DNA of 64,000 nucleotides from Thermoplasmatota archaeon (GTDB lineage: Archaea > Thermoplasmatota > Thermoplasmata > UBA10834), in contig JBFMHR010000003.1 in assembly GCA_040751795.1 (NCBI GenBank), positions 264,421 to 328,420 on the forward strand. The letters run 5' to 3'. This document shows positions 4,923 through 28,073 of the stretch, piece by piece. The notes under the pieces were generated by a model. The model searched no databases. It was not told the origin of the DNA and worked only from the letters and a program-made list of their open reading frames with translations. Made by a program: the position numbers and the translations under genes. How positions within the stretch are numbered: the stretch's first letter is position 1; each line of letters starts with the position of its first letter.

Positions 4923-5969
4923 ATGGCCAAGGTGACGATGGCCCAAGGGGCGGGCGGCGAACGGATGCAGGAGTTCATCCGCGAGTTCGTGCTGAAGGAG
5001 CTCGAGCACGACTTCGGCGAGATCCCCCTGGGCGCCCTCGACGACGCGGCGGTCGTGGACGGCATCGTGTTCACCACGGACACCTACACCGTCAAGCCGC
5101 TCTTCTTCCCGGGAGGGGACATAGGCCGCCTCGCGGTCGCGGGCACCGTCAACGACCTGTCCGTGATGGGCGCGGCCCCGGTGGCCCTCTCCTGCGCGAT
5201 GGTCATCCAGGAGGGTTTCCCGACCGACGACCTCCACACGATCATGAAGAGCCTCAGCTCGACCGCCAGGTCAGCCGGGGTGAGGATCGTCACGGGCGAC
5301 ACGAAGGTCGTCGAGAAGGGGGCCGTCGACGGCCTGTTCATAAACACGAGCGGCATCGGGAGGCGCTCCCCGCACCTGGACCGCAACATCGCGGAGGTCA
5401 GGAGGTCGAGGGGCTTCAGGTGGGAGTGGCCCAACGACTCCGGCGTCGCCGACGGCGACATCATCATCGCGTCAGGGCCGATCGGGAACCACGGCGTGGC
5501 GCTCCTCTCCTTCAGGGAGGGCTACGGGTTCGACACCGTCGTCAAGAGCGACGCGGCCCCGCTGAACCACCTCGTCGCGGAGGCGCTGAAGGTGGGGGGA
5601 GTCACCTCCATGAAGGACCCGACCAGGGGCGGCCTCGCGAACCTGCTCAACGAGTGGTCGGAGAAGTCCTCCGTAGGGATCAGGGTCAGGGAGGAGGACA
5701 TCCCGATGGACGGCCCCGTCCTCGCCGCCTGCGAGATGCTGGGGATAGACCCCCTCGAGGTCGGCAACGAGGGCAAGGTAGTCTTGGCCGTGGTCCCGGA
5801 GAAGGCGGAGGCGGTCCTCGAGGCGATCAGGGCCGTCCCTGAGGGGTCGAGGGCCGCGATCATAGGCGAGGCGAGGAAGGACATCCGCGGCGTGATGATG
5901 GAGACGCACACTGGCGGGAAGAGGGTGCTGGAGCCGCCGGTGGGCGACCCGGTCCCGAGGATCTGCTAG
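4923..5969 (+). CDS. hypE: Hydrogenase maturation factor HypE (carbamoyl dehydratase)
   Basis: AIR-synthase-like fold with N-terminal AQGAGGERMQEF and the diagnostic C-terminal ...PRIC. Start chosen at ATG 4923 within the longer listed ORF. Confidence 0.85.
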   Translation: MAKVTMAQGAGGERMQEFIREFVLKELEHDFGEIPLGALDDAAVVDGIVFTTDTYTVKPLFFPGGDIGRLAVAGTVNDLSVMGAAPVALSCAMVIQEGFPTDDLHTIMKSLSSTARSAGVRIVTGDTKVVEKGAVDGLFINTSGIGRRSPHLDRNIAEVRRSRGFRWEWPNDSGVADGDIIIASGPIGNHGVALLSFREGYGFDTVVKSDAAPLNHLVAEALKVGGVTSMKDPTRGGLANLLNEWSEKSSVGIRVREEDIPMDGPVLAACEMLGIDPLEVGNEGKVVLAVVPEKAEAVLEAIRAVPEGSRAAIIGEARKDIRGVMMETHTGGKRVLEPPVGDPVPRIC

Positions 5970-6481
5970 GCACTGCGCCTGACGAACTCGCGTTCTATCA
6001 TGTCCACTATGGCCGGGAGGCTGGCCGCCACCCTCGGGGTGAGCCCCTCGCGGAAGTTGTCGACGTCCTCGGCCTCTATGGCCACGAAGAACACCTCCTT
6101 CGGCATCCTGTCGGGCACGACCTGCCTCCCCATGGCCAGGGCCGTGGGGATGTTGAAGCCGTGGGGCGAGGTCCCGTGGACGGTCCTCCGGAAGTCCTCC
6201 TCCGTGAGTATGTAGTGGTCCCCCGGGGTGCCCCCCCTCGTCTGTATCGCGTCGATTATGACCACCCTGTCGTGGTCGAGGACCATGTCGAGGAGCTCGA
6301 GCCCGCTCGCCGGGAGCTCCTCTATCGACACGCCCTCCAAGCCCCGCTCCATGAGCATCCTGGCGGCGTATATCCCGACGCCGTCGTCAGAGAGCACGGG
6401 GTTCCCGACTCCCACGATGAGGGTCTTCACGGGCAAGGGTAGCACCTCATGCGTATTCATCCTGTCGGGGTGGAAAATCAT
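5966..6481 (-). CDS. [NiFe] hydrogenase maturation endopeptidase (HycI/FrhD/HoxW family)
   Basis: LIVGVGNPVLSDDGVGIYAARML motif. Lies immediately downstream of mvhA on the same strand. Confidence 0.8.
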   Translation of the reverse strand: MIFHPDRMNTHEVLPLPVKTLIVGVGNPVLSDDGVGIYAARMLMERGLEGVSIEELPASGLELLDMVLDHDRVVIIDAIQTRGGTPGDHYILTEEDFRRTVHGTSPHGFNIPTALAMGRQVVPDRMPKEVFFVAIEAEDVDNFREGLTPRVAASLPAIVDMIEREFVRRSA

Positions 6482-6515: not shown

Positions 6516-8030
6516 TCAGAAGTTCCTGAGCTTCTCCGCGACCGAGCCGTCCGCCTTCCTGACGGTCACCTCTAGCGCCGGCCCGCCGTTCAGCGAGTGC
6601 GTGCCGCAGGAGTTGCAGGGGTCGTAGCACCTGAAGGCCATCTCGACCTTGTTGAGCAGCCCCTGCGAGACCATCCCGTTGTGGATGAGCGCCTTGGCCG
6701 CCTGCTTCACGCTCGTGTTCATGGCCGCGTAGTTGTTGGTCGTCGCGACGATCATGTTGATCTTGGTGCACAGGCCGTCCTTGTCGGAGGCGTAGTGGTG
6801 TATCAGCGTGCCCCTCGGGGCCTCGCATATGCCCACGCCCTCCTTGGGCGGGTTCCACGGCCCCCTGGTGTCGTCGCTGGTGATGCTCTTGTCCCTCGCG
6901 AGCTCGAGCATGCGCTCGGTGGCGTACTGGAGCTCTATCACGCGCGCCCAGTGGTACGCCAGGGTGTGGTGCACCGGCCCGGTGACGCCCAGGTCCCTCA
7001 TGGTCTTCTTGAACGCCTCGTACTCGGCCTGCGCCAGGGGGGTCGTGTAGCCCTCGCAGACGTTGATCCTGCCGAGCGGTCCGACCCTGTATATGCCGCT
7101 GGAGGGGCCGGTGGTGAAGCCGTTCCAGCCCACGTTCTTGAGGTAGGGCATCTTCATGTAGGTCCAAGGCTCGACGTGCTCCGCTATGACGTCCAGGTAC
7201 TCGCTGGGCTTGAACTTCACGACCTGCTTGCCCTTCTGGTCGACCACCCTTATGTCGCCGTCGTAGAACTGGCTCTTGTTGTTCTTGTCGACCATGCCCA
7301 TGTAGTAGGTCTCGAGGTAGTATGCGTCCTGGTTGAGCACCAGGCCGAGGTAGTCCTTGTTCGCGAGCACGACGTCGTGGAAGAGCTTGATGGTGAACTT
7401 GCCGAACTCGACGCAGCTCTTGGCCATCTCCTCCATCTGCGCGCGCTCCTCCTCGGAGATCTGCTTCGAGACGCCCCCGGGGAGGCCGAACACGGGGTGC
7501 GTCGCCCTGCCCCCGATGATCTCCTGGATCTTCTGGCCGTAGGAGCGGTGCTTGATGACCTCGGCGCCGATCGGGACGCCCACGGCGTCGACGACCCCGA
7601 GGACGTTCCTCTTGTTCGACGGGGCCGACGGCCCGAGGACGAAGTCCGCGGCCGCGAGGGCGTAGAAGTGGGCTATGTGGCTGTGCGTGTACTGCCCCAT
7701 GTAGAAGAGCTCCCTGAGCTTCTTCGCCGTGGCGGTCGGCTCTGCGCTGAACACGGCGTCCAGGGCCTTGGTGGACGCTATGTGGTGGGCCGCCGGGCAC
7801 ACGCCGCAGAGCCTGTTCGTCAGGACGGGCAGCTCCTGCACGTGCCTGCCTATGCAGAACCTCTCGAAGCCCCTGAGCTCCGGGATCTGCATGTAGGCGT
7901 TGGAGACCTCCCCCTTGTCGTCAAGGAATATCTCTATCTTGCCGTGCCCCTCGAGCCGCGTCACGGGGTCGATCGTGATCTTCTTCTCCGTCGTCTTCAC
8001 CGGTGTGTCGTTGATGATCGGTCCTGCCAT
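6516..8030 (-). CDS. mvhA: F420-non-reducing [NiFe] hydrogenase large subunit MvhA
   Basis: N-terminal RLEGHG...RxCGVC Ni-binding motif. C-terminal DPCNSCGTH is followed by a protease-cleavable extension. Length 504 aa. Confidence 0.9.
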   Translation of the reverse strand: MAGPIINDTPVKTTEKKITIDPVTRLEGHGKIEIFLDDKGEVSNAYMQIPELRGFERFCIGRHVQELPVLTNRLCGVCPAAHHIASTKALDAVFSAEPTATAKKLRELFYMGQYTHSHIAHFYALAAADFVLGPSAPSNKRNVLGVVDAVGVPIGAEVIKHRSYGQKIQEIIGGRATHPVFGLPGGVSKQISEEERAQMEEMAKSCVEFGKFTIKLFHDVVLANKDYLGLVLNQDAYYLETYYMGMVDKNNKSQFYDGDIRVVDQKGKQVVKFKPSEYLDVIAEHVEPWTYMKMPYLKNVGWNGFTTGPSSGIYRVGPLGRINVCEGYTTPLAQAEYEAFKKTMRDLGVTGPVHHTLAYHWARVIELQYATERMLELARDKSITSDDTRGPWNPPKEGVGICEAPRGTLIHHYASDKDGLCTKINMIVATTNNYAAMNTSVKQAAKALIHNGMVSQGLLNKVEMAFRCYDPCNSCGTHSLNGGPALEVTVRKADGSVAEKLRNF

Positions 8031-8036: not shown

Positions 8037-9050
8037 TCACCCCTTCCTCTTGCGCTCCTTGACGGTCCTCCTCAGAGGGGACTTCGGGAGCGTGAACGCA
8101 TAGAAGGTCCCGAGCGGGTCCTTGACCTGCATCATCATTTCCATTATCTGCTCCTCATTTAACTTTGACTCCGAATCCGTGATGTTGAGGAGGGACGAGA
8201 CGGCGCTCAGCATGCTCGCGCCCTGGTCCGTCACGGCCTTGGTCGGTCCCATGCAGCCCCTGCAGGGCATGTTCGCGTTCGGGCACATGGCGCCGCAGCC
8301 CGCCCTCGTCGCAGGGCCGATGCATATGATGCCCTGGTCGAGGAGGCACTTCTTCGGGTCCGCCTTGATCTCGTACGACTGGTAGATCTTGTCTATGCGC
8401 CTGTTCTTCTCGACCCTCTCCCTCTTGCACTCGTCGCACAGGGTCTTGTCGCTCGCTATGACCGTCCCCTTCGGGGGCAGCGGCGCCCCCTGCGTCACGT
8501 GCTTCGCGACCACGTCGACAGCCAGGGCGATCAGGTTCGTGGTCGGCGGGCAGCCCGGCATGAAGTAGTCGACGTCGACCACCTCCTCCAGGGTCTTGAC
8601 GTCGTCGTAGAACCTGGGCAGCTCGAGCTCGCCCTCGGGCACCTTCGTGTGCTCCTGGGGGTACGTGCCGGCCTTGTTGTCCGTGGACTGGGTCTTCTTG
8701 TACACGGTCTCGAAGACCTCCTCCCTGTTGGTGACGTTGCCCAGGCCGGGCGTGCCGCCGAAGCAGGCGCACGAGCCGAAGCTGATCAGCACGACCGACT
8801 TCTGCCTCAGGACCTTCGCCACGTGCTCGTTCTCGCTGTTCCTTATGGCGCCGTTGTAGAACGACACCGTGATCGACTTGTCGGGCATCTGCTCGATCTC
8901 GTGCAGCTTGCCGTCGAACCCTATCGGCCAGAACACGACGTCCGCTATCGCGTGGACGTCCAGGATCTTGGCGTCGATGTCCAGGAGCGCGACGTCGCAG
9001 CCGCCGCACCCTGCCCCCCAGTACTGCGCGATCTTGATCTTCTCAGCCAT
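8037..9050 (-). CDS. mvhG: [NiFe] hydrogenase small subunit MvhG
   Basis: Cys-rich small-subunit motifs (GCGGCDVA, GSCACFGG, GPATRAGCGAMCP). Sits upstream of the large subunit. Confidence 0.9.
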   Translation of the reverse strand: MAEKIKIAQYWGAGCGGCDVALLDIDAKILDVHAIADVVFWPIGFDGKLHEIEQMPDKSITVSFYNGAIRNSENEHVAKVLRQKSVVLISFGSCACFGGTPGLGNVTNREEVFETVYKKTQSTDNKAGTYPQEHTKVPEGELELPRFYDDVKTLEEVVDVDYFMPGCPPTTNLIALAVDVVAKHVTQGAPLPPKGTVIASDKTLCDECKRERVEKNRRIDKIYQSYEIKADPKKCLLDQGIICIGPATRAGCGAMCPNANMPCRGCMGPTKAVTDQGASMLSAVSSLLNITDSESKLNEEQIMEMMMQVKDPLGTFYAFTLPKSPLRRTVKERKRKG

Positions 9051-9051: not shown

Positions 9052-9435
9052 TCAGTTCACCTCTCCTGCACCCGTCTTCTTCAGCAAGGCCGCGTACTGA
9101 GGCGACTGGCCCTTCATCCCCGCCTGCTCGATGAGCCTCCACTTCTTGAGGGCGATGATGTGCCTGACGATCTCCGGCTTAGGTATGCCCGTGGCGTCGT
9201 GCAGCTCGTGCACGGTCCTCAGGCCCCGCTCCATCTCCATCAGGAGCGAGTTCCTCTCCAGGTCCACCGCTGCAGCCTTCTGCACGATGAAGCTGTACCT
9301 CGCGTCGGTGATCGCCTCGCCGAAGACGTTGCCGGATGTGGTGAGCTGCCCCTTCTTCCCGAGGAGCCACCTCACCCGCTCGCCCTCGACGGTCCTCCTG
9401 GCCGCCTCTATCCTGGCCTTCCTGTCCATCCTCAT
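9052..9435 (-). CDS. Small winged-helix-like protein (domain X), free-standing homolog of the C-terminal half of the MvhD fusion at 12916..13707
   Basis: 127 aa. LERNSLLMEMERGLRTVHELHDATGIPKPEIVRHIIALKKWRLI aligns with FERSLILELSRGRARSVKELGQIMDVPTDRVLRHIVALRQKNMI of the fusion protein. ATGA overlap with mvhD upstream. Confidence 0.6.
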   Translation of the reverse strand: MRMDRKARIEAARRTVEGERVRWLLGKKGQLTTSGNVFGEAITDARYSFIVQKAAAVDLERNSLLMEMERGLRTVHELHDATGIPKPEIVRHIIALKKWRLIEQAGMKGQSPQYAALLKKTGAGEVN

Positions 9436-9884
9436 TCACCACCTCGCATCGGTGATGGTCCAAGTTCGTTTATCGTCTCGGTGAACTCCGTGATGGTCTT
9501 CTGGAACTTCTCGCCTTCACCGGCGGAGATCCACTCGAGCCTCAGCCTGTCCGGGTCGTAGCCGAACTGCTGTATCAGCATCTTCAGGAGGGCTATCCTC
9601 CTGCGGGTCCTGTAGTTCCCCCCTATGTAGTGGCAGTCCGCCGGGTGGCACCCCGCGACGAGTATGCCGTCCGCGCCCTTCTTGAACGCCCTCAGGACGA
9701 ACTCCGGGTCCACACGGGCCGAGCACATCACCCTGATGACCCTGAAGTAGGGCGGCATCTGCAGCCTGCTCACGCCCGCGAGGTCCGCGCCCGCGTACGA
9801 GCACCAGTTGCAGCAGAACACGATTATCTTCGGCTCGAACGCGTGCTCGGCCGCACCGTGCGCCTCCTTCGCCTCGCTGCTCAT
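9432..9884 (-). CDS. mvhD: Hydrogenase iron-sulfur subunit MvhD ([2Fe-2S])
   Basis: FCCNWCSYAGADLAG ... GCHxxDCHY motifs. 150 aa. ATGA overlaps with genes on both sides. Confidence 0.85.
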   Translation of the reverse strand: MSSEAKEAHGAAEHAFEPKIIVFCCNWCSYAGADLAGVSRLQMPPYFRVIRVMCSARVDPEFVLRAFKKGADGILVAGCHPADCHYIGGNYRTRRRIALLKMLIQQFGYDPDRLRLEWISAGEGEKFQKTITEFTETINELGPSPMRGGE

Positions 9885-12800
9885 CCCTTCACCTCCTGCT
9901 TCTTCGGCTGCTCAAGCGCAGCATCGATCATCGCCAGTATCTGCTCGTCCCTGAAGCCCTTCTGCGTCAGGGCCCCCGCAGGGCACGCGCCCACGCAGGC
10001 GCCGCAGCCCTTGCACAGCCCCACGTTGACGCTGACCATCTTCTTCTTCGGGTCGTCCTTGTGGGGCACGATGTCCAGCGCCTTGTACTCGCAGGTCGGG
10101 ACGCATATGCCGCAGCCGTCGCACAGGCTCTCGTCGACGCTCGCGACTATGCCCTCCGCCTCGAGGGTCGTCTTCGACAGGACGGTCATCGCCCTCGCGA
10201 CGGCCGCCAGGGCCTGGGATATGCTCTCGTCCACGAACTTCGGCCCGTGCGCCAGCCCCGCGAGGTACACGCCCTCGGTGGCGAAGTCGACCGGCCTCAG
10301 CTTCATGTGCGCCTCGAGGAAGAAGCCCTCCTTGGTCAAGGGCACCTTCAGCATCGGCGCGAGCTCCTCGGCGTCGTGCTGCGGCCTGGTGCCTGACGCG
10401 AGGACGAGGTAGTCGGGCCTGAGGACCAGCAGCTTGCCGGTGTCCTCCTCGGTCACCTTGACCTCCAGCTTCCCGCCCTTGTCCTCCACGACGGGCTTCT
10501 TCTCGTCGTCGAACCTGACGAACTTGACGCCCTTCTGCGAGGCCTCCTTGTAGTACTTCTCCCTGAAGCCGTAGGTCCTGATGTCCCTGAACAGGACGTA
10601 GACCTCCGCCTCCGGGTCCTTCTCCTTGACCTTCGTGGCGGCGGTCATCGTGCCCGTGCAGCACACGCGCGAGCAGTTCGGGTGGTCTCCCTCCCTGGAG
10701 CCGACGCACTGTATGAAGGCGTACGACTTCCCCTTGGCCTCGCCCTTCTTGAGCATCTCCTTGAACTCGAGCAGGGTCTTGACGTTCTTGCTCTTCCCGT
10801 AGAGGTACTCGCCCTCGGGCCTGTGCTCCTGCCCGCCGACCGCGAGTATGACAACGCCGTGCTCGACCTCCTTGCCGTCGGCGAGGGTGGTCTTGAAGTT
10901 CCCGACGTACCCCTCGATGTTCTTGACCTTGGCCCCGAGGTGCACGGTTATGTTCTTCTCCGCCCTGACCTCGGCCTCGAGCCTCTTCACGTGCTCCATC
11001 GGGTCGTCGCCGGAGGGCAGGTAGTGCAGCTTCCTCAGGTTGCCCCCGAGCTCCTTCTCCTTCTCCACGAGGTGGACCTTCACGCCCTGCCTGGCGAGCT
11101 CGAGCGCGGCCACCATGCCGCTCACGCCCCCGCCTATGACCAGGGCCTGCTGGTTCACCTTGATGGTGAGGTTCTCGAGCGGCTCCAGGAGCTTCGACTT
11201 GGCGATGGCCATCCTGACGAGGTCCTTGGCCTTCTTGGTGGCGGCCTTGGGCTCGTGCATGTGGATCCAGGAGCACTGGTCCCTGATGTTCGCCATCTCG
11301 AAGAGGTAGGCGTTGAGCCCGGCCTCCCTGATGGTGTTCTGGAACAGCGGCTCGTGGGTCCTGGGCGTGCAGCTCGCGACCACGACCCTGTTGAGCTTGT
11401 GCTCCTCGACCTTGCCCTTGATGCGCTCCTGCGCGTCCTGGGAGCAGGTGTAGAGGTTCTGCTCGGCGTAGACCACGCCCGGCAGCGTCTTGGCGTACTC
11501 CATGACCTCGGGCACATTGACGACGCCGCCGATGTTGATGCCGCAGTGGCACACGAACACGCCGATCCTCGCCTCCTGCCCGCCGACGTCCTTCTCCTTG
11601 GGGTACTCCTTCTTGGTGACGAGCGTGCCCCTGGCGGAGGCTATCTCCGTCCCGGCCCTGGCCGCGGCCCCGCTCGCCTCGGCGACCGTCATGGGTATGT
11701 CCTTGGGGGACGAGAACGCCCCGCTCACGAACACCCCCGGCCTCGAGGTCTCGACCGGGGTGAACACCCCGGTCTGGCAGAAGCCGTCGTCGTTGAGGCG
11801 GAACTTCATGACGCGGCTCAGCGCCTCCGCGTCGGAGGCAGGCGTCAGCCCGACTGCGAGCACCACGAGGTTGAAGACCTCCTCCTTCGGCTCGCCGTCC
11901 TCGGTGTACTTGAGTATGAGGTTCTTGGTCTTCGGGTCCTCGCTGACCGCGGCTATCCTCGACCGGACGAACCTGATCCCGTACTCGTCCTTGGCGCGGT
12001 TGTAGTACTCGTCGAACTGCTTCCCGAACGCCCTCAGGTCCATGTAGAATATCGAGGGCTTGATGTTGCCGCCGTGCTCCTTGGCTATGATGGCCTCCTT
12101 GACGGAGTACATGCAGCACACGCTGGAGCAGTACTCGTTCCCGCAGTGCTCGTCCCTCGAGCCCACGCACTGTATGAAGGCGATCTTCTCGGGTATGTCG
12201 CCGTCGGAGGGCCTCAGGACGGTGCCGAAGTACGGCCCGGTCGCGCTCAGCATCCTCTCGAACTCGATGCTCGTCACGACGTTCTGGTACACGCCGTACC
12301 CGTACTCGGGCTTCAGGCGCGCGTTGAACTCCTCGAAGCCGGGCGAGACTATGATCGACCCGACCTGGATCTCGAACACCCTCTCCTTCTGGTCGTACGC
12401 GACGGCCTTGGCCTTGCACTCCTCGGCGCATATGCCGCAGCCGATGCACCTCTCCGGGTCTATGGAGTAGACCAGCGGCACGGCCTGGGGGTAGCGCACG
12501 AATATGGCCTTGCGGACCTTCGTGCCCTCGTTGTACTCGTCCACGGTCTCGATGGGGCACTTCTGCGCGCAGCTGCCGCAGCCCGTGCACTTGGTCTCGT
12601 CGACCCTGAACGCCCTCTGCTTGACCGTGACGGTGAAGTTGCCCGCCTGCCCGTCCACTATGGCTATGTCCGCGTTCGTTATCAGCTGGATGTTGTGGTG
12701 CCTGCCCGTCGCGACGAGCTTGGGCGCCATGATGCACATGGCGCAGTCGTTGGTCGGGAAGGTCTTGTCCAGCTGGGCCATGACCCCGCCGATGCTCGGC

Positions 12801-12916
12801 TGCTTCTCCACCAGGTACACCTTGTACCCGGAGTCGGCCAGGTCCAGCGCGGACTGGAGGCCGGATATGCCCCCGCCCACGACCATGACGGCGCCGACCT
12901 TGTCAGTTGCGGCCAT
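9881..12916 (-). CDS. hdrA: Large heterodisulfide reductase subunit A: extra N-terminal FAD/thioredoxin-reductase-like module fused to a complete HdrA
   Basis: About 1011 aa. Residues 1-430 (VVGGGISGLQ, ferredoxin CxxCxxCxxxCP) are paralogous to the free 431-aa protein at 15582..16877. Residues ~450-1012 are a standard HdrA: RIGVFVCHCG Fe-S N-domain, second GGGVSG FAD motif, inserted and C-terminal 2x[4Fe-4S] domains. An alternative GTG start lies 3 nt upstream. Confidence 0.9.
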   Translation of the reverse strand: MAATDKVGAVMVVGGGISGLQSALDLADSGYKVYLVEKQPSIGGVMAQLDKTFPTNDCAMCIMAPKLVATGRHHNIQLITNADIAIVDGQAGNFTVTVKQRAFRVDETKCTGCGSCAQKCPIETVDEYNEGTKVRKAIFVRYPQAVPLVYSIDPERCIGCGICAEECKAKAVAYDQKERVFEIQVGSIIVSPGFEEFNARLKPEYGYGVYQNVVTSIEFERMLSATGPYFGTVLRPSDGDIPEKIAFIQCVGSRDEHCGNEYCSSVCCMYSVKEAIIAKEHGGNIKPSIFYMDLRAFGKQFDEYYNRAKDEYGIRFVRSRIAAVSEDPKTKNLILKYTEDGEPKEEVFNLVVLAVGLTPASDAEALSRVMKFRLNDDGFCQTGVFTPVETSRPGVFVSGAFSSPKDIPMTVAEASGAAARAGTEIASARGTLVTKKEYPKEKDVGGQEARIGVFVCHCGINIGGVVNVPEVMEYAKTLPGVVYAEQNLYTCSQDAQERIKGKVEEHKLNRVVVASCTPRTHEPLFQNTIREAGLNAYLFEMANIRDQCSWIHMHEPKAATKKAKDLVRMAIAKSKLLEPLENLTIKVNQQALVIGGGVSGMVAALELARQGVKVHLVEKEKELGGNLRKLHYLPSGDDPMEHVKRLEAEVRAEKNITVHLGAKVKNIEGYVGNFKTTLADGKEVEHGVVILAVGGQEHRPEGEYLYGKSKNVKTLLEFKEMLKKGEAKGKSYAFIQCVGSREGDHPNCSRVCCTGTMTAATKVKEKDPEAEVYVLFRDIRTYGFREKYYKEASQKGVKFVRFDDEKKPVVEDKGGKLEVKVTEEDTGKLLVLRPDYLVLASGTRPQHDAEELAPMLKVPLTKEGFFLEAHMKLRPVDFATEGVYLAGLAHGPKFVDESISQALAAVARAMTVLSKTTLEAEGIVASVDESLCDGCGICVPTCEYKALDIVPHKDDPKKKMVSVNVGLCKGCGACVGACPAGALTQKGFRDEQILAMIDAALEQPKKQEVKG

Positions 12917-13707
12917 CACTGCTCACCTCCGATGACGATGGTCTTGTATGTTGGAGTGAACCCCTCCGGGTGCTCCATCGCTATCATGTTCTTCTGCCTC
13001 AGGGCGACGATGTGCCTCAGGACCCTGTCCGTAGGGACGTCCATGATCTGCCCCAGCTCCTTGACGGACCTGGCCCTGCCCCTGGACAGCTCGAGGATGA
13101 GGCTCCTCTCGAACTCCTCCTCCGTCGAGGCGTCTATGATCTTGTCGAGCTCCGCCGGGTCCAGCTTGTTGCCGTAGGCGTTGCCCTTGTTGACCAGGTT
13201 CAGCTCCCTGCCGACGAGCGCCTTGAGCCTGAAGGTCTCCGACGCGCCGTCCGCTGCGGCCACCCTGTCGCCCAGCCTCTGGTCCTTCCTGACCTTGCTC
13301 GGGCCGAGCCTCCTTATGTTCTCGGTGAACTCGGTCACGACCTTGGAGAACTTCTCCCCCTCGGACGCGGAGACCCACTCCAGCCTGAGCCTCTCGGGCT
13401 CGAGCCCGCTCTCCTCGAGCAGGCGCTTCATCAGCCTCACGCGCTTCTCGGTGTAGTAGTTCCCGGAGATGTAGTGGCAGTCGCCTATGTGGCAGCCGCC
13501 CAGGAGCACGCCGTCCGCCCCGGCCCTGAATATGTCGAGGACGAGGTGGGGGCTGATCCTGGTCGAGCACATGACCCTCACGGCCCTTATGTTCGTGGGG
13601 TACTGGTACCTGCTGACCCCGCACAGGTCGGCGCCCGCGTACGAGCACCAGTTGCACAGGAACCCTATGATCTTCGGCTCGAACTCCGCCTTGGGTGCGT
13701 CGGCCAT
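12916..13707 (-). CDS. MvhD domain fused to C-terminal winged-helix-like domain X
   Basis: The N-terminal ~140 aa are MvhD (FLCNWCSYAGADL, GCHIGDCHY). The C-terminal ~115 aa are homologous to the free-standing ORF 9052..9435. Confidence 0.8.
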   Translation of the reverse strand: MADAPKAEFEPKIIGFLCNWCSYAGADLCGVSRYQYPTNIRAVRVMCSTRISPHLVLDIFRAGADGVLLGGCHIGDCHYISGNYYTEKRVRLMKRLLEESGLEPERLRLEWVSASEGEKFSKVVTEFTENIRRLGPSKVRKDQRLGDRVAAADGASETFRLKALVGRELNLVNKGNAYGNKLDPAELDKIIDASTEEEFERSLILELSRGRARSVKELGQIMDVPTDRVLRHIVALRQKNMIAMEHPEGFTPTYKTIVIGGEQ

Positions 13708-13710: not shown

Positions 13711-15585
13711 TCACACCTCCTCCTGGAGCGCGGCCTTCGCCTCTGCGAGCAGCTGCGCGTCGGTGTAGTTGGTCATGGTTATCGCGCCCTCGGGGCAGGT
13801 CGCGCCGCAGCAGCCGCAGCCCTTGCACGCCGCCACGATGACCTCCGCCAGGCCCTTGTCGTTCTTCCTGAGCGCGCCGTACGGGCACACCTCTATGCAG
13901 GTTCCGCACCCGGTGCACCTGGTCTCGTCGACGACCGAGGTCAGCGCCTCGGCCTGGACGTAGCCCTTGGCCATCGGGATCGCGGCCCTCGAGGCCGCGG
14001 CCGAGCCCTGCGTGACCGCCTCGGTTATGTCCGCCGGGCCCTTGCAGGTCCCGGCGACGTATATGCCGTCGGTGGCGAAGTCGACCGGCCTCAGCTTCAC
14101 GTGCGCCTCCAGGAAGAAGCCCTCCTGGCCCAGCGGCACCTTGAGCATCTTGGACAGCTCGCCCGCGTCCGGCTGCGCCACGAGCGGGGTCGACAGGACG
14201 ACCATGTCGACGGGCATCGTCCTCTCGAGCTTCAGGGTCTCGTGGAAGTACGTGACCTTCAGCTGGTTGTCCTCCATGAAGACCTTGGGCAGGTGGTCGA
14301 GGGTGTACCTGTTGAACTTGACCCTCTTCTCCCTGGCCTTGTTGTAGGTGAGCTCGTGCTCCACGCCGTAGGCCATGACGTCCCTGTTGAACACGGTGAC
14401 CTCGATCTTCTCCGACGGCCCGAGCTTGACCTCCTCGGCCTCGCCCTCGGCCTCGCCGCGCCCGCGCCTCCTGCGCCTGCGCTCGAGGATCTCGTCGGTC
14501 GCCTTCTTCTCGACGGGGATCTTCTCGACGACGGTCCCGGCCTTCTCCATGACCCCGAGCATGTTCTCGTAGTTGTCCACGATGTTGATGGCGTTCTTGA
14601 TGGCGACGTTGCAGCAGATCCTGGAGCAGTAGGACATCTTCTGGCCCCTGGACCCGACGCACTGTATGAACGCCACGCTCTTGAGCTTCGGGAGGGTCTT
14701 CTTCTTGCACAGGATCTCGAACTCCGTCAGGGTGACGACGTTAGGGTACTGGTTGTAGCCGTACAGGCCCTCGGGGACGAACTCCAGCGCACCGGTGGCG
14801 ACGACTATCGTGCCGACCTTGAACTTCTTCCCCTCGCCCCCCTTGGGGGCGATGACGACCTCGTAGTTGCCTATGAAGCCGTCGATGCTCTTGACGGTCG
14901 AGTTCAGGTGCAGCGTGATGTTCTTGTGCCCCTTGACCTTGTCTATCAGGGGCTTTATGGTGTCCGTCGCGCCCTTCTCGGTGACGTAGAGGTTGTTCAG
15001 GAGCCTGACGAAGCCCCCGAGCTCCCCCTCCCTCTCGACGAGGTGCACGGGGAAGCCCATGTCGGCCAGCGAGGCCGCGGCGGTCATCCCGCTGACGCCG
15101 CCGCCAATGACCAGCCCGACCGGCTCGACGTCGACCTTCGCCTCCTCCTGGGGCTTTAGCAGCCTGGCCCTCGCGACGCCCATGCGGATCAGGTCCTTGG
15201 CCTTCTTCGAGGCGAGGTCCTTCTCCTTCATGTGCACCCACGAGCAGTGCTCCCTGATGTTCACGAACGTGAACAGGTACTTGTTGAGGCCGGCGCCCTC
15301 GCAGGTCGCCTGGAACAGGGGCGCGTGCGTCCTGGGCGTGCAGCTCGCCACTATGACCCTGTTCAGGTTGTGCTTCCTGATGGCCTCCCTGATGCTGCCG
15401 AGCCCGTCCTCCGCGCAGGTGTACATGTTCTGGGTCGCGTACACCACGTCGGGGAGCGTCTTCGCGTAGTCCGCCACGGTGGGGACGTCCACGAACCCGC
15501 CTATGTTGCTCCCGCAGGAGCAGACGAACACGCCTATCCTCGGCTTGTCGACCTCGTTGACCTTGTTCTCAGCCATGTCGCTCAT
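13711..15585 (-). CDS. hdrA: HdrA, complete-HdrA module (the C-half of a split large HdrA)
   Basis: Begins MSDMAENKVNEVDKPRIGVFVCSCG. The ATG overlaps the TGA stop of the upstream 431-aa gene (ATGA). Carries FAD-binding GGGVSG, an inserted ferredoxin and a C-terminal 2x[4Fe-4S] ferredoxin domain. Confidence 0.85.
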   Translation of the reverse strand: MSDMAENKVNEVDKPRIGVFVCSCGSNIGGFVDVPTVADYAKTLPDVVYATQNMYTCAEDGLGSIREAIRKHNLNRVIVASCTPRTHAPLFQATCEGAGLNKYLFTFVNIREHCSWVHMKEKDLASKKAKDLIRMGVARARLLKPQEEAKVDVEPVGLVIGGGVSGMTAAASLADMGFPVHLVEREGELGGFVRLLNNLYVTEKGATDTIKPLIDKVKGHKNITLHLNSTVKSIDGFIGNYEVVIAPKGGEGKKFKVGTIVVATGALEFVPEGLYGYNQYPNVVTLTEFEILCKKKTLPKLKSVAFIQCVGSRGQKMSYCSRICCNVAIKNAINIVDNYENMLGVMEKAGTVVEKIPVEKKATDEILERRRRRRGRGEAEGEAEEVKLGPSEKIEVTVFNRDVMAYGVEHELTYNKAREKRVKFNRYTLDHLPKVFMEDNQLKVTYFHETLKLERTMPVDMVVLSTPLVAQPDAGELSKMLKVPLGQEGFFLEAHVKLRPVDFATDGIYVAGTCKGPADITEAVTQGSAAASRAAIPMAKGYVQAEALTSVVDETRCTGCGTCIEVCPYGALRKNDKGLAEVIVAACKGCGCCGATCPEGAITMTNYTDAQLLAEAKAALQEEV

Positions 15586-16877
15586 CCCCCCGCCTGGGCC
15601 ATGGCCTCGACCGCCTTCGCGGCCGCGCTCGAGCCCTGGGCGACCGCCTCGGGTATGTCCGCCGGGCCGGCCGCGTACCCCGCGAGGTACACGCCGGGCT
15701 TGACGGTCCTGCCCGGGCCGAGGATCCTGTCCGCAGACTCCAGGAACCCGAACTCGTCGACCTTCAGCCCGAGTATCTTCGCCAGCTCGGCCGTCTCCTT
15801 CCTGGGCACCAGCGTGGTGGCCAGGACGACGAGGTCGAACTCCTCGGACTGCTGCCTGCCGCCCACGTCGTACACGACGACGGGGTTGTGTGTGTCCGGG
15901 TTCTCCTGGACCGTGGCGTCGGAGTTGATGTACCTGACGCCGTAGTCGCGCTTGGCCCTCTCGACGTACTCGTAGAAGCCCTTGGCGCAGGCCCTCATGT
16001 CCTTGTAGAATATGGTGGACTCGATGTCGTCGTAGTGCTCCCTCGCCAGCATCGACTCCTTGGTCGAGTGCATGCAGCACACGGCGCAGCAGTACGGGTG
16101 CCCGACCTGCGGGTTCCTCGAGCCGACGCACTGTATGAACGCCATCTTCTTCGGCCTCTCCTTGTCGGAGCGCCTCTGGATGTGGCCGTGGGTCGGGCCC
16201 GCGGCGTTGATCATCCTCTCGTACTCCATCGCCGTGAAGACGTTGGGGTACCGGCCGTAGCCGTACTCCGTGGACGGGGTCGGGTCCCAGACGTCGAAGC
16301 CGGTGGCGACTATGATCGCGGCGACCTCTATCTCCAGGACCTGGTCCTTCATCTCGTAGTTGATGGCGCCCCTCTTGCAGACCTTCATGCAGTTTCCGCA
16401 CTTGTCCTTGGTCAGCTTGAGGCAGTGCTCCTTGTCGATGGTCATGACCCTGGGGACGGCCTGCATGAACGGGATGTATATCGCCTTCCTCGTGGTGAGG
16501 CCCATCTCCCAGTCGTTGACGACCTTGCTCGGGCACTTCTCGAGGCACTCCCCGCAGCCGGTGCACTTGGTCTCGTCGACGTACCGGGCCTTCTTGAGCA
16601 CCTTCACCTTGAAGCTGCCGACGCTCCCCTCGACGCCGATCACCTCAGAGTAGGTGATCACATTGGTGTTCGGGTGGCTGAAGCAGTCGGCCATCTTGGG
16701 CGCCAGTATGCATATAGAGCAGTCGTTCGTAGGGAAGGTCTTGTCCAGCTGGGCCATCCTCCCACCGATGCTGGGGGTCTTCTCGACCAGATGGACGATC
16801 AGTCCCTTGTCCGCCAGGTCCAGCGACGCCTGTATCCCGGCGACTCCCCCTCCTATCACCATAACCGCCTTCTCCAT
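15582..16877 (-). CDS. HdrA-like FAD-dependent oxidoreductase module (the N-half of a split large HdrA)
   Basis: 431 aa: VIGGGVAGIQASLDLA, DKTFPTNDC, one ferredoxin CTGCGECLEKCP. Paralogous to residues 1-430 of both large HdrAs. Lacks the RIGVxVCHCG N-domain and the C-terminal ferredoxins. Confidence 0.85.
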   Translation of the reverse strand: MEKAVMVIGGGVAGIQASLDLADKGLIVHLVEKTPSIGGRMAQLDKTFPTNDCSICILAPKMADCFSHPNTNVITYSEVIGVEGSVGSFKVKVLKKARYVDETKCTGCGECLEKCPSKVVNDWEMGLTTRKAIYIPFMQAVPRVMTIDKEHCLKLTKDKCGNCMKVCKRGAINYEMKDQVLEIEVAAIIVATGFDVWDPTPSTEYGYGRYPNVFTAMEYERMINAAGPTHGHIQRRSDKERPKKMAFIQCVGSRNPQVGHPYCCAVCCMHSTKESMLAREHYDDIESTIFYKDMRACAKGFYEYVERAKRDYGVRYINSDATVQENPDTHNPVVVYDVGGRQQSEEFDLVVLATTLVPRKETAELAKILGLKVDEFGFLESADRILGPGRTVKPGVYLAGYAAGPADIPEAVAQGSSAAAKAVEAMAQAGG

Positions 16878-17085: not shown

Positions 17086-17529
17086 TCACTTGGCCGAAAG
17101 GACCTCCTTCGCCTCGGTGTCCTTCTGGATCTCCGTGACCTTGACCTTGAAGGGGGCCTTCTTCCTGCCTTGCATCCCCTCGGACGCGAACCTCTGGCAG
17201 TTCGGGTATGTGCAGGGGGTGCACTTCTTGTCCTTGCACGACAGCTCTATGAGCACGAGCCTGTCCCTGGTGTCCGCGGCCCCGGTGACCGGCTTCCTGA
17301 CCTCGAACATCTTGGTCATCCGCGTCTCGTAGGGCTTCTTCTTCGGCTCTATCCTGGCGAACCTCTGGCAGTTCGGGTAGGTGCACGGGTCGCACTTCTT
17401 GTCCTTGCACGACAGCTCGATCAGCAGGACCCTGTCGCCCTGCCCCTTCGCCTGGGCCGCCTCCTTGGCGTCCTTCTCCTTCTTCTCCGTCTTCGGTGTC
17501 ATCCTAACAGTCCTTCGCGTTTCATTCAA
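17086..17529 (-). CDS. Small basic Cys-rich protein with an internal tandem duplication (2 x C-x5-C-x2-C-x4-C)
   Basis: Contains LIELSCKDKKC(D/T)PCTYPNCQRFA twice, 57 aa apart. The underlying ~81-nt DNA segments at 17187..17267 and 17358..17438 are about 89% identical. Lys-rich composition in a GC-rich genome. Overlaps the stop of the upstream gene. Confidence 0.55.
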   Translation of the reverse strand: MNETRRTVRMTPKTEKKEKDAKEAAQAKGQGDRVLLIELSCKDKKCDPCTYPNCQRFARIEPKKKPYETRMTKMFEVRKPVTGAADTRDRLVLIELSCKDKKCTPCTYPNCQRFASEGMQGRKKAPFKVKVTEIQKDTEAKEVLSAK

Positions 17530-19113: not shown

Positions 19114-22100
19114 TCAGGCGCCCACCTCCTCGTCCTTCCCCTCGGGCGCGAGGAGCGCCTCGAGCATGGTCATGATCTGGTCGGTCTTGAAGTGCTTCGG
19201 CCTTATCGCCCTGGAGCAGCACGCGACCGCGCAGGAGCCGCAGCCCTTGCACAGAGCCTCGTTGATCTTCGACTTGAACACCCCTGGCGAGACCTCCTCG
19301 ACCCTGGGCGCCCCGTACTCGCACAGCTCCTCGCACCTGCCGCATGCGATGCACTTCTCGGGGTCTACCTCCGAGACGACGCCCTCCGCCTCGATGAACG
19401 GCTTGGACAGGACCGTGTTGACCCTGGCGGCCGCCGCAAGGGCCTGGGATATGCTCTCGTCTATGAGCCTCGGGGAGTGCGCCAGGCCGCAGAGGAATAT
19501 GCCGTCGGTGGCGAAGTCGACCGGCCTCAGCTTCATGTGCGCCTCGAGGAAGAAGCCCTCCCTCGTCAGCGGGACCTTGAGCATCTGGGCCAGGTCCTTG
19601 TTGTCAGGGTTGGGCCTGACGGCCGCGTTGAGGACCAGGTAGTCGGGCCTGATGGTCACGGTCTGCTCTATGAACTGCTCGTCCACCTCGACGGTGAGGT
19701 GGCCCCCGTGCTCGCTCACCCTCGGGGGCGACGAGGGGTCGTACCTCAGGAACACCACGCCGAGCCTCGCGGCCTCGTTGTAGTTCTCCTCCCTGAAGCC
19801 GAAGGTCCTGATGTCCCTGTAGAGGACGTACACGGCCGTCCCCGGGTGGTCCTGCTTGATCTTCATCGCGTTGGCCATGGCCGTGGAGCAGCAGATCCTG
19901 GAGCAGTTGGGGTGCTCCTCGTCCCTCGAGCCGACGCACTGGATTATGACCACGCTCTTCGCCTTGAAGTCCTTGCCCGAGACCATCTCCCCGAGGTCGG
20001 TCTGCCTGATGACCTTCGGGTCCTTCCCGAAAAGGTACTGCTCGGGCTCGTGCTCGACGGCCCCCGTCGCCACGACTATGGCGCCGTGCTGGACCTTCTC
20101 CCCGCTCCCGAGGGTGGTCTCGAAGTTGCCGATGTAGCCCTTGACCTCGGCCACGGTGTCCTCCAGGTGGACCTTGATCCTCGGGTCCCCCATGACCTCC
20201 TTCTCCAGCTTCCTGAAGGTCTCCTGGGGGTCGACCCCTATGAGGGTGCGGTGTATCCGCCTGAGGTGGCCGCCGAGGTGCTTGCTCTTCTCCACGACGT
20301 GCACGTCGAAGCCGCTCCTGGCGATCTCCAGGGCGGCGGTCATGCCGCTCAGGCCGCCCCCAATGACGAGCGCGGACTGGGTGACGGGTATCCTGGGCTG
20401 CGGGAGCGCCTCGAGCGTGGCCGCCTTGGCGACGGCCATGCGGACCAGGTCCTTGGCCTTCTCCGTCGCGCGCTCCGGCTCCCTCCTGTGCACCCACGAG
20501 CACTGGTCCCTGATGTTGGCCATCTCGAACAGGTACTTGTTCAGGCCCGCCTCCTTCACAGTGTTCTGGAAGAGCGGCTCGTGGGTCCTGGGGGTGCAGC
20601 TCGCGACCACGACCCTGTTGAGGTCGTGCTTCTCGATGGTCTCCCTGATCTTCTTCTGGGTGTCCTGCGAGCAGGTGTAGAGGTTCTGCTCAGCCACGAT
20701 CACGTGCTGGAGAGTCTTGGCGTACTCCATGACCTCCGGCACGTCCACGACCGAGCCGATGTTGATGCCGCAGTGGCAGACGAAGACGCCGATCCTCGGC
20801 TCCTTGCCCGCGACCTCCTTCTCCTTGGGGTACTCCTTCTTTGTGACGAGTGTCCCCCTGCTCTCCGAGAGGAGCGCCGCCGCCTTGCCGGCGGCGCCGC
20901 TGGCCTGCGCGATCGAGTCGGGGATGTCCTTGGGCCCGGAGAACGCGCCGCACACGTAGACGCCGGGGACGGATGTCTCAACCGGGGACAGCTCGTCCGT
21001 CTCGCAGAAGCCGAACTTGTTGAGGTCGACGCCCAGCACCTTGGCGAGCGCGCCCGTCGCCTCCGGCGGCCTCGCGCCCGCCGAGAGCACCACGAGGTCG
21101 AACGCCTCCTCGGCGATGTCGGCCCCCTCGAGGTAGCTGAGGATGACGTTGCCCGTGGCAGGGTCCTCCTGCAGCTTGGATATCCTGTTGTTCCTGAGGA
21201 CGCGGACGCCGTACTCGTTCTCCGCGCGCATCAGGTATTCCTCGAACTCCTTGCCGAAGGCCCGCGTGTCCATGAAGAAGATGGCCGTGTCGAGGCCCGG
21301 GACGTGCTCCTTGCCGATGACGGCCTGCTTGAGGGCGGCCATGCAGCAGTAGGAGGAGCAGTAGGTGTTCCCCGTCTGCGCGTCCCTCGAGCCGACGCAC
21401 TGGACGAAGGCGATCTTCTTCGGGACGTCGCCGTCCGAGGGGCGGATCACATGCCCCTCCGTCGGGCCCGACGCGCTCAGCATCCTCTCGAACTCGATGT
21501 TGGTCAGGACGTTGGCGTACACCCCGTGCCCGTACTCCGCCTTCTTCGACGCCTCGAAGACGTCGTAGCCGGGGCTGAGGATGATCGAGCCCACCTCGAC
21601 GACCTCCTCCTTGTCCGGCTTCTCGGAGTAGCTGATGGCCTTCGCCTCGCAGAATTTCTCGCAGATGCCGCAGCCGATGCAGAGGCCCCTGTCTATGGTA
21701 TAGACCAGGGGCACGGCCTGGGGGAAGGGCACGTAGATGGCCTTGGCCGGCGCGAGCTCCCTGTCGAAGGCGTTCAGCCCCTCGACCGGGCAGTGCTCCG
21801 CGCAGACGCCGCAGCCCGTGCACTTCTCCTCGATGATGTACCTGGAGCGCCTGGTGAGGGTGACCTTGAAGTCGCCGGCCTTCCCGTCGACCTTCTTGAG
21901 CTCCGCGTTGGTGAGCATGGTGATGTTCTCGTGCCTGCCCGTGGCTACGAGCTTGGGGGACACGATGCACATGGCGCAGTCGTTGGTCGGGAAGGTCTTG
22001 TCCAGCTGGGCCATGGTGCCGCCTATGCTGAGGCCGGCCTCGAGTATGTACACCTTGAAGCCGGAGTCGGCGAGGTCCAGGGCCGCCTGTATGCCGGCGG

Positions 22101-22149
22101 GGCCGCCGCCCACGACGAGGACGGCGCCGACCTTCTTGTGCTCTGCCAT
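19114..22149 (-). CDS. hdrA: Large heterodisulfide reductase subunit A (second copy of the tandem-module architecture)
   Basis: 1011 aa. Same arrangement as 9881..12916, about 60-70% identical to it by eye. Two GxGxxG FAD motifs, RIGVFVCHCG, several 4Fe-4S motifs. Confidence 0.9.
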   Translation of the reverse strand: MAEHKKVGAVLVVGGGPAGIQAALDLADSGFKVYILEAGLSIGGTMAQLDKTFPTNDCAMCIVSPKLVATGRHENITMLTNAELKKVDGKAGDFKVTLTRRSRYIIEEKCTGCGVCAEHCPVEGLNAFDRELAPAKAIYVPFPQAVPLVYTIDRGLCIGCGICEKFCEAKAISYSEKPDKEEVVEVGSIILSPGYDVFEASKKAEYGHGVYANVLTNIEFERMLSASGPTEGHVIRPSDGDVPKKIAFVQCVGSRDAQTGNTYCSSYCCMAALKQAVIGKEHVPGLDTAIFFMDTRAFGKEFEEYLMRAENEYGVRVLRNNRISKLQEDPATGNVILSYLEGADIAEEAFDLVVLSAGARPPEATGALAKVLGVDLNKFGFCETDELSPVETSVPGVYVCGAFSGPKDIPDSIAQASGAAGKAAALLSESRGTLVTKKEYPKEKEVAGKEPRIGVFVCHCGINIGSVVDVPEVMEYAKTLQHVIVAEQNLYTCSQDTQKKIRETIEKHDLNRVVVASCTPRTHEPLFQNTVKEAGLNKYLFEMANIRDQCSWVHRREPERATEKAKDLVRMAVAKAATLEALPQPRIPVTQSALVIGGGLSGMTAALEIARSGFDVHVVEKSKHLGGHLRRIHRTLIGVDPQETFRKLEKEVMGDPRIKVHLEDTVAEVKGYIGNFETTLGSGEKVQHGAIVVATGAVEHEPEQYLFGKDPKVIRQTDLGEMVSGKDFKAKSVVIIQCVGSRDEEHPNCSRICCSTAMANAMKIKQDHPGTAVYVLYRDIRTFGFREENYNEAARLGVVFLRYDPSSPPRVSEHGGHLTVEVDEQFIEQTVTIRPDYLVLNAAVRPNPDNKDLAQMLKVPLTREGFFLEAHMKLRPVDFATDGIFLCGLAHSPRLIDESISQALAAAARVNTVLSKPFIEAEGVVSEVDPEKCIACGRCEELCEYGAPRVEEVSPGVFKSKINEALCKGCGSCAVACCSRAIRPKHFKTDQIMTMLEALLAPEGKDEEVGA

Positions 22150-22150: not shown

Positions 22151-22609
22151 TCAGACCCCCTCCCCGTAGATCGGGCCGAGCCTCTGGAGCTCGGCGACCA
22201 TCTCCTTCACGACGTTCGCGAACTTCTGCCCCTCGGAGCCCGCTATCCACTCGATCCTGAACCTCTGCGCCTCTATCCCCGCGTCCTCGAGGAACGATGA
22301 CAGGAAGTCGCCGCGCATGGCGGCCTTCTCGTTGCCGTTGATGTAGTGGCAGTCCGCCGGGTGGCACCCGGCGACTATGACGCCGTCCGCCCCGAGCTCG
22401 AAGGCCTTGAGCACGAAGGCAGGGTCCACCCTCCCGGAGCACATGACCCTGACTATCCTCACGTTCGGGGGGTACTGTATCCTGGTCGTACCGGCGAGGT
22501 CGGCCCCCGCGTACGAGCACCAGTTGCAGCAGAAGGCCACGATCCTCGGCTCGTACCCGGCCTGCTCCTCGGCCGCCTCGTGCTTCTTCGCGTGCGTGGT
22601 CACGGTCAC
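22151..22609 (-). CDS. mvhD: MvhD-type [2Fe-2S] subunit (standalone, GTG start overlapping the hdrB stop as GTGA)
   Basis: EPRIVAFCCNWCSYAGADLAG, GCHPADCHY. 153 aa. Confidence 0.8.
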   Translation of the reverse strand: MTVTTHAKKHEAAEEQAGYEPRIVAFCCNWCSYAGADLAGTTRIQYPPNVRIVRVMCSGRVDPAFVLKAFELGADGVIVAGCHPADCHYINGNEKAAMRGDFLSSFLEDAGIEAQRFRIEWIAGSEGQKFANVVKEMVAELQRLGPIYGEGV

Positions 22610-26188: not shown

Positions 26189-26324
26189 GGTTCCCCCTCC
26201 TACTCGACTTGCCGCGTCGAAGTGCCGGATGGCCCGAGTGACCCCGCGGGAAGGCACCATTTCCTGCCGACTGGCGCTCCCACTCAGACCAGGTGTCGGA
26301 CGAGTGCAGATAATAAAGAGGTGC

Positions 26325-26334
26325 TTAATATAGG
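26325..26334 (-). promoter_or_regulatory. Putative TATA box (CCTATATTAA) for the hdrA-hdrC-hdrB-mvhD-hdrA operon
   Basis: AT-rich element about 137 nt upstream of the hdrA start, in an otherwise GC-rich intergenic region. Only a sequence pattern. Confidence 0.3.
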
Positions 26335-28070: not shown

Positions 28071-28073
28071 CGC

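Follow-up and report, generated by a model that had tools for sequence, protein, structure and literature searches.

Flavin-based electron bifurcation in methanogens, methane oxidisers, sulfate reducers, acetogens and aromatic-compound degraders centres on modules of HdrA and MvhD. In this study we analysed a 64,000-nucleotide stretch of DNA (hereafter, the window) from a Thermoplasmatota archaeon (GenBank assembly GCA_040751795.1, contig JBFMHR010000003.1, positions 264,421 to 328,420), in which a string of hdr and mvh genes encodes two copies of a small winged-helix domain that we refer to as X. One copy is a free-standing protein of 127 amino acids (aa) and the other is the C-terminal part of a 263-aa MvhD protein. 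Based on the evidence set out below, we consider X to be probably a non-catalytic protein-protein docking module of about 115 residues, carried on the MvhD-type [2Fe-2S] adaptors of HdrA-based complexes.

The canonical relatives of these adaptors are the MvhD, VhuD and FlpD subunits of the MvhAGD-HdrABC, Fdh-Hdr-Fmd and Elp-Hdr complexes (PDB 5odc, 7bkb and 8rvu). They are 50-60% identical to the MvhDs of the window, with template modelling (TM) scores of about 0.9, but their solved chains comprise only 129-141 residues and lack any winged helix at the C-terminus; relative to them X is an addition. A 2025 survey of HdrA in methane-metabolising archaea showed that clusters of type II (tandem) HdrA have MvhD neighbours (PMC12054007). 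The window resembles these clusters, as its 1011- and 1012-aa HdrA proteins each have two thioredoxin-reductase-like regions and each is followed by an MvhD gene. A search of the text of that survey found no occurrence of "helix", and neither a winged helix nor an X domain on MvhD is mentioned in it.

The only paper linking MvhD with a winged helix that our literature search found is a preprint on the class II benzoyl-CoA reductase of Geobacter metallireducens (10.64898/2026.04.10.717634). The first-pass annotation of the window, made from the sequence alone, had been aware of no described MvhD subunit with a winged helix, a statement that the preprint has overtaken. In this enzyme the MvhD homologue BamF exceeds other MvhDs in length by more than 100 aa, and cryo-electron microscopy is reported to show that its winged helix-turn-helix interfaces with BamI, so linking BamGHI to BamED (10.64898/2026.04.10.717634). 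The same work describes BamE as a fused HdrA dimer, BamF as having a selenocysteine (Sec19) and "two Rossmann-fold domains", and the BamF-containing arm as undergoing large rotations between states of the enzyme (10.64898/2026.04.10.717634).

The 263-aa protein of the window is like BamF in that its MvhD domain is extended at the C-terminus by more than 100 aa, within which a winged helix-turn-helix is confidently predicted, and the BamF gene lies directly after that of the fused HdrA dimer BamE. The differences are that the window proteins have cysteine and a single MvhD domain in place of Sec19 and two Rossmann-fold domains, that their partners are HdrA genes and a [NiFe]-hydrogenase and not BamGHI, and that one of the two X copies is a separate polypeptide. 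The window cluster comprises hdrA, hdrBC-like, mvhD, mvhGA and hyp genes. As no AOR-type or NuoEFG-type genes were found in it, it does not encode a benzoyl-CoA reductase and would have only a relative of the adaptor of that enzyme.

Two homologous copies of a winged-helix domain

The fusion gene, mvhD-X, is on the minus strand at 12916-13707, and its orthologue in another genome (locus L001) encodes 269 aa. Residues 5-142 of the fusion (13282-13695) are an MvhD domain, as identified by hmmsearch, by matches to PDB chains and by Foldseek (TM 0.9). Residues 143-258 (12934-13281) are the X domain, as delimited by BLASTP against the 127-aa protein and by hmmsearch with a profile of the X family. 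The BLASTP alignment paired residues 8-118 of the 127-aa protein with residues 148-258 of the fusion (30% identity, 54% positives, E=5e-16), and both copies matched positions 2-127 of the family profile (E=1e-63 for the free copy and 2e-53 for the fused copy). By these comparisons the 127-aa protein and residues 143-258 of the fusion are paralogues. The homologous unit is about 115 residues long, taking in an N-terminal helical part and so reaching beyond the helix-turn-helix-like block by which the first-pass annotation had linked the two proteins. The shared domain that it had noticed was thereby borne out. Its motif stood in part: both proteins have EL...RHI.AL, and the ATG tripeptide is confined to the 127-aa protein.

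The N-terminal ~140 residues of the fusion matched the MvhD/FlpD family (PF02662) with E=5e-54, and the separate 150-aa MvhD encoded directly upstream of the free X gene (mvhD, 9432-9884, minus strand; a plain [2Fe-2S] MvhD/FlpD subunit) did so with E=1e-56. The scores were 182 and 190 bits, respectively, against a cut-off of 22.3, and both matches covered profile positions 1-123 of 123. The two MvhD sequences are 61% identical to one another, and alignments with solved MvhD chains showed that both have the [2Fe-2S] cysteine motifs CNWC...C...GCHxGDCHY. The MvhD part of the fusion also matched the PDB chains 5odc_D, 8rvu_F and 7bkb_F (E=1e-54 to 1e-45). Since residues 1-142 of the fusion are a full MvhD and the 127-aa protein aligns to the rest, the split pair of mvhD and X is, judged by sequence, the equivalent of the fused MvhD-X. 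A six-frame scan of the window with hidden Markov models (HMMs) identified exactly two X domains and four MvhD domains.

The free-standing X gene (9052-9435, minus strand) has an ATG start and a third-position GC content of 0.91, on par with the other real genes of the window (about 0.9, in a window of 65% GC). Its start overlaps the mvhD stop in the sequence ATGA and is preceded by a GGAGGTGGTG-like ribosome-binding site, and a gap of 1 nt separates its stop from the ATG of mvhG, the gene of the [NiFe]-hydrogenase small subunit (8037-9050, minus strand; 337 aa; PF01058). The overlap and the short gap suggest translational coupling, as is expected of stoichiometric subunits. The stop of the mvhD-X fusion likewise overlaps the start of the hdrA gene that follows it. 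The order tandem HdrA - MvhD - X - MvhG - MvhA - HycI is identical in three other genomes (L001, L065 and L066). Orthologues of the free X at 70% identity or more number 153, all of them ~123-130 aa long and from Thermoplasmata-type metagenome-assembled genomes (MAGs), and they are publicly labelled either "ArsR family transcriptional regulator" or hypothetical protein. A free X between mvhD and mvhG is peculiar to the lineage of the window. The free X of the window has no cysteine and is strongly basic (net charge +9, isoelectric point (pI) 10.3); the mean net charge of its 120 closest orthologues is +5.3.

AlphaFold2 modelled residues 45-118 of X as a winged helix-turn-helix, comprising a long helix, two short helices and a beta-hairpin, with predicted local distance difference test (pLDDT) values above 90. 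In the free X the core of this fold spans residues 58-116 (9088-9264, minus strand), from the long helix through H2 and H3 to the beta-hairpin wing with P112 and Y114. The first 45 residues had low confidence when X was modelled alone (~55 pLDDT). The model of the whole 263-aa fusion was compact (pLDDT 86.5, predicted TM score 0.84), and in it the N-terminal part of X rose to ~90, which may partly reflect a deeper alignment (23 versus 15 sequences). Structure searches confirmed the winged-helix fold; a DNA-binding and a protein-binding winged helix are not separable by them.

Profile matches to known winged-helix families were marginal. Pfam models HTH_IclR and HTH_5 (ArsR) matched residues 61-105 of the free X at 24 and 23.7 bits, just above the cut-off of 22 for both, and the fused X gave no HTH_5 match and nothing comparable in Pfam. 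HTH_5 matched nine of 18 diverse X domains at E<=0.01, with the first member scoring below the cut-off. The NCBIfam ArsR/SmtB model (HTH_metalloreg) gave the free X 18 bits against a cut-off of 55, and a PDB profile search with X identified an ArsR-family regulator at E=5.6e-5. No model in NCBIfam or Pfam is dedicated to X. Together with the AlphaFold2 models these matches indicate a confident winged helix-turn-helix in X, weakly ArsR/MarR-like, in keeping with the winged-helix-like nature first proposed for it.

Conservation by alignment column, computed over 131 X domains, was highest in an N-terminal motif comprising R20, R22, W23, G26, K27 and then G35, N36, V37, Y38, G39 and E40 (R22 0.86, N36 0.87, G35 0.73, Y/F38 0.88 and E40 0.72). 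In the free X of the window this signature occupies residues 20-41 (R-x-R-W-L-L-G-K...G-N-V-F-G-E; 9313-9378, minus strand), N-terminal to the winged helix. Further conserved positions are E58, R61, I64, S74, V75, L96 and, in the wing, P112 and Y114; conservation of the recognition helix is no more than moderate. There is no conserved cysteine column among the 131 domains. The family is on average neutral to acidic, with a mean net charge of -0.7 (range -14 to +9) and a median pI of 6.4.

Distribution of X and its linkage to MvhD and HdrA

X is a genuine domain family, conserved far beyond the locus in which it was noticed. A profile search of 1.84 billion representative proteins identified 284 clusters at 50% identity with E<=0.001, of which 143 had E<=1e-10, and the matches spanned X positions ~5-118, i.e., the whole unit. 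In about half of the 150 representatives listed, MvhD directly precedes X in the chain; the remainder are free proteins of 100-130 aa and a few large fusions. The latter include a 1737-aa protein (P0275) with the order HdrA-Fer4-MvhD-X-Fer4-Fer4_20-Pyr_redox_2, an MvhD-X-Fer4-GltD-like protein (P0256) and three HdrA/Fer4-MvhD-X proteins (P0137, P0184 and P0222). Three other proteins (P0145, P0160 and P0201) have two tandem X domains without MvhD; P0145 (756 aa) is an X-X-Fer4 protein with a C-terminal 4Fe-4S dicluster domain.

To describe gene context, we used a census of 60 loci, made up of 59 loci from a genome scan and L001, in which open reading frames (ORFs) were labelled with HMMs built from the window proteins. 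The scan used a narrow X alignment and sampled only members with [ED][EK]GNVYGE, and the counts that follow apply to that subset. Archaeal loci were from Bathyarchaeia, Jord-, Frey- and Odinarchaeota, Hadarchaeota, Methanocellales, Methanomassiliicoccales, Thermoplasmata, Thermococci and Archaeoglobi, and bacterial loci were from Chloroflexi, Bacillota, Thermodesulfobacteriota/Desulfobacterales/Syntrophobacterales, Eiseniibacteriota and WOR-3. A further protein search added ANME-1 (Methanophagales) and NC10 to the range of X.

The loci contained 74 X-bearing ORFs, comprising 53 MvhD-X, three HdrA-MvhD-X and 18 free X, so that X is fused directly after MvhD in 56 of the 74. Eight of the 18 free X ORFs lie directly after an mvhD ORF, and most others are directly beside an hdrA or a GltD-like gene. 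HdrA is the downstream neighbour of 58 of the 74 X-bearing ORFs (in 44 of these cases the HdrA has 850 aa or more) and the upstream neighbour of at least 47. These counts uphold the earlier suggestion that X is recurrently attached to MvhD. A recurrent cassette has the order HdrA' (split or tandem) - MvhD-X - tandem HdrA - MvhD - (MvhG - MvhA), and the fused X copy of the window sits in exactly this cassette. Both window copies are directly C-terminal of MvhD or encoded directly after it within the hdrA cluster. The homology of the two copies, their winged-helix fold and the strict genomic and fusion linkage of X to MvhD and HdrA across many phyla are shown by these analyses.

The locus of one family member (P0218; L061, 1-13632) bears on the relation between X and BamF, as this MvhD-X protein is at the BamF position of a cluster resembling that of class II benzoyl-CoA reductase. 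Two AOR-type proteins encoded there match BamB best among PDB chains (4z3w_A, E=1.4e-115), and a ferredoxin likewise matches BamC best (4z3w_E, E=7e-51). Next in the cluster are a tandem HdrA of 973 aa, the MvhD-X, an oxidoreductase of the GltD-like type, and proteins resembling HdrC and HdrB. In this locus the GltD/NfnB-like NAD(P)H oxidoreductase and the separate HdrC- and HdrB-like genes replace BamGHI and BamD. Based on its length and architecture and on the MvhD-X at the BamF position, the winged helix of BamF is likely, but not proven, to be an X domain. Searches for BamF of G. metallireducens itself did not turn it up: a PDB sequence search with MvhD returned only chains of 129-141 residues and none longer, no protein named as from Geobacter was among the 120 MvhD-X proteins listed when six short MvhD-X forms served as queries, and scanning metagenomes with X from the protein at the BamF position gave nothing beyond a near-identical contig.

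In six loci from Desulfobacterota MAGs (L048 and L051-L055; e.g., L054, 9581-10336) the MvhD-X frame contains an in-frame TGA at the first Cys of GCHxGDCHY, which indicates that these MvhD-X proteins would contain selenocysteine. Each such gene is broken by gene callers into one ORF of 67 aa and another of 120-170 aa. Short forms beginning "MCSGRVD..." were also considered as selenocysteine truncations and rejected for L061 and L063, where they proved to be mis-called starts with an intact CNWC upstream. In L048 (2811-5784 and 10356-13372), a Thermodesulfobacteriota MAG, the pair of tandem HdrA and selenocysteine-type MvhD-X adjoins a methylene-tetrahydrofolate reductase (MTHFR) gene and a gene for a GcvH-domain protein, and is followed by genes for a PAS histidine kinase and a sigma-54 response regulator.

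Docking, DNA binding or regulation

Several lines of evidence led us to favour a docking role for X. It occurs inside redox polyproteins, at a linker position between electron-transfer modules, and nearly everywhere it lies between hdrA genes, usually tandem ones, with the same neighbours in archaea and bacteria. An MvhD-X at the BamF position in L061, taken with the contact reported between the winged helix of BamF and BamI, also speaks for docking. It is coupled to MvhD either covalently or translationally, the fusion model is compact, and the N-terminal part of X is modelled with confidence only together with MvhD. In addition, the family has no conserved cysteine, is neutral to acidic in charge, and has its peak of conservation outside the recognition helix. 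X would accordingly be expected to bind protein and not DNA.

If X is a docking module, we propose that its N-terminal helical segment (R-x-R-W-L-x-G-K...G-N-V-Y-G-E) packs on MvhD and/or HdrA, and that its winged helix holds a neighbouring electron-input or electron-output module so that the iron-sulfur clusters are within transfer distance. The module occurs twice in the long, translationally coupled gene string of the window, once in fused form between the split and the tandem HdrA and once in split form with the tandem HdrA on one side and the MvhGA [NiFe]-hydrogenase on the other. The partner held by the fused copy would be the tandem HdrA encoded downstream, and that of the free copy would be the HdrA/MvhG side of the hydrogenase arm.

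Some observations weigh against a docking role. The fold and the weak profile matches of X are those of DNA-binding families (ArsR/SmtB, IclR, MarR and TrmB), with none pointing to a non-DNA-binding family, and a winged helix alone cannot tell DNA binding from protein binding. The basic character of the free X would suit binding of nucleic acid. Canonical MvhAGD-HdrABC complexes work without X, which leaves a docking role with no evident reason for X next to MvhG. The homology of X and BamF rests on architecture, length and the L061 gene cluster and not on an alignment, and the depth of alignment mentioned above may account for part of the gain in confidence of the N-terminal segment within the fusion model.

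More speculatively, the winged helices of X might serve as a general connector by which MvhD plugs one HdrA bifurcation module into a second redox module, be it a tandem HdrA, a hydrogenase, BamGHI or an NAD(P)H oxidoreductase of the GltD/NfnB-like type. On this view the widespread cassette HdrA'-MvhD-X-tandem HdrA-MvhD-MvhGA would encode a daisy-chain of at least two bifurcating flavins in many uncultured archaea and bacteria, and in the Thermoplasmata lineage the unusually basic free X, when unassembled, could double as a regulator that binds DNA or RNA. We regard this wider picture as possible rather than probable.

The best surviving alternative to docking is that X is an ArsR/MarR-type DNA-binding transcription factor of the hdr and mvh genes, with the fused form responding to how reduced the [2Fe-2S] cluster of MvhD is. 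The matches to HTH_IclR, HTH_5 and the ArsR-family regulator in the PDB are consistent with it, as are the public annotation of the free orthologues and their basic charge. Two TTTCGAAA palindromes are also present in the AT-rich DNA (26261-26620) that separates hypD from the first hdrA gene. The first-pass annotation had pointed to palindromes upstream of the hdr operons, and placed the first correctly, at 26349 (26349-26356); the second is at 26433-26440 and not at 26436. They are 84 nt apart, and shuffling of the whole window gives an expectation of 0.17, a figure that is blind to the local AT-richness. Against such a role, X is embedded in 700-1700-aa redox polyproteins between MvhD and Fer4 or GltD modules, and it keeps its neighbours in archaea and bacteria, whose promoters differ. 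The range of charge in the family as a whole disfavours family-wide DNA binding, and would leave it open for the basic free-standing subfamily.

X also differs from ArsR/SmtB, IclR and MarR proteins in having no ArsR-type metal-binding or cysteine sites, in having its family-specific N-terminal motif region, where conservation is highest, and in being obligately linked or fused to MvhD or HdrA. Compared with ArsR/SmtB proteins it has no C-terminal dimerisation helix; the protein stops right after the wing, with no alpha5 in the model, and its score with the NCBIfam ArsR model is far below the cut-off. In the one MvhD with a winged helix whose structure has been characterised, that helix serves for contact with another subunit (10.64898/2026.04.10.717634). 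We therefore regard a DNA-binding role as unlikely. The two functions originally offered for X have diverged in standing: the structural adaptor is favoured, and the redox-coupled DNA-binding sensor is disfavoured by the absence of conserved cysteine, by charge and by the positions of X in polyproteins.

It is less likely again that X is an allosteric or regulatory winged-helix subunit, which would bind a small ligand or stabilise one conformational state of HdrA/MvhD. DsrD, a small winged-helix protein that was once thought to bind DNA and has been reported to activate DsrAB, provides an analogy, but it was absent from the top structural matches of X. The strict association with enzyme genes and the fusions are the same as would be seen for an adaptor, and the N-terminal loop G-N-V-Y-G-E is conserved as strongly as a functional site. 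The strong rotation of the BamF-containing arm between states of benzoyl-CoA reductase would also suit such a role (10.64898/2026.04.10.717634). However, X has no recognisable ligand pocket or cofactor motif, and nothing sets this explanation apart from plain docking. Lastly, the idea that the two sequences match by chance or through low complexity and that the 127-aa ORF is no real gene can be given practically no weight and is refuted by the pairwise E-value of 5e-16, the third-position GC of 0.91, the 153 close orthologues and 284 clusters, and the synteny in three other genomes.

The surrounding gene string and what X may signify

The hdr and mvh genes of the window form a single long string on the minus strand, running from ~26260 down to 5966. 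Directly upstream of it is a full set of [NiFe]-hydrogenase maturation genes, hypD, hypA, hypF and hypB (26621-31228, minus strand). The string, all of which is on the minus strand, begins with a 719-aa HdrA-like protein (24101-26260), an HdrC-like ferredoxin (23520-24104), a gene that is possibly HdrB-like (22606 to ~23520) and the fourth MvhD of the window, a plain one (~22151-22609). A 448-aa ORF at 22151-23497 had appeared to join an unknown domain to this MvhD; the first 300 residues are Arg-rich and result from reading through out of frame, so that the plain MvhD alone is real. The 1011-aa tandem HdrA (19114-22149) comes next, and is followed directly by an MvhD-HdrC-HdrB fusion with FlpD, Fer4 and CCG domains (17522 to ~19117). 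The listed 610-aa ORF of this fusion begins inside the upstream gene, and as homologues have ~531 aa its true start is uncertain.

A 147-aa Cys-rich protein (17086-17529) contains an internal duplication, with LIELSCKDKKCxPCTYPNCQRFA present twice. It had no Pfam match above threshold and no NCBIfam match, and may be a small metal- or cluster-binding subunit. Downstream of it, the split HdrA is encoded as an N-terminal half of 431 aa (15582-16877) and a C-terminal half of 624 aa (13711-15585), the latter directly upstream of mvhD-X; the stop and start of the two halves overlap. Bathyarchaeia, Asgard archaea, Methanocellales and other groups have the same split (~435 and 570-650 aa), which indicates a conserved arrangement and not a frameshift error. 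Between mvhD-X and mvhD is the 1012-aa tandem (type II) HdrA (9881-12919), in which Pfam identified two Pyr_redox_2/FAD regions and Fer4. After X and mvhG, the string ends with mvhA, encoding the 504-aa [NiFe]-hydrogenase large subunit (6516-8030; PF00374), and a gene for a HycI-type hydrogenase maturation protease (5966-6481).

MvhD as an adaptor and the winged helix as an interface are both already known, so the advance made here is incremental and no new mechanism is indicated. Based on the comparison with BamF, X is likely a variant of the BamF winged-helix feature in an archaeal Hdr/Mvh setting, and unusual in occurring also as a separate polypeptide beside hydrogenase genes. A feature seen once, in benzoyl-CoA reductase, would thereby extend to Bathyarchaeia, Asgard archaea, Thermoplasmata, ANME-1, Chloroflexi, Bacillota and Desulfobacterota. 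Recognising X would correct the annotation of free copies as "ArsR family transcriptional regulator" or "hypothetical protein" and that of fusions as "hydrogenase iron-sulfur subunit", and X would mark, at the level of sequence, those complexes whose MvhD adaptor connects a tandem HdrA with an additional module. X bears on how HdrA/MvhD modules are wired to different electron donors and acceptors, and the finding yields a testable hypothesis on the chaining of bifurcating modules.

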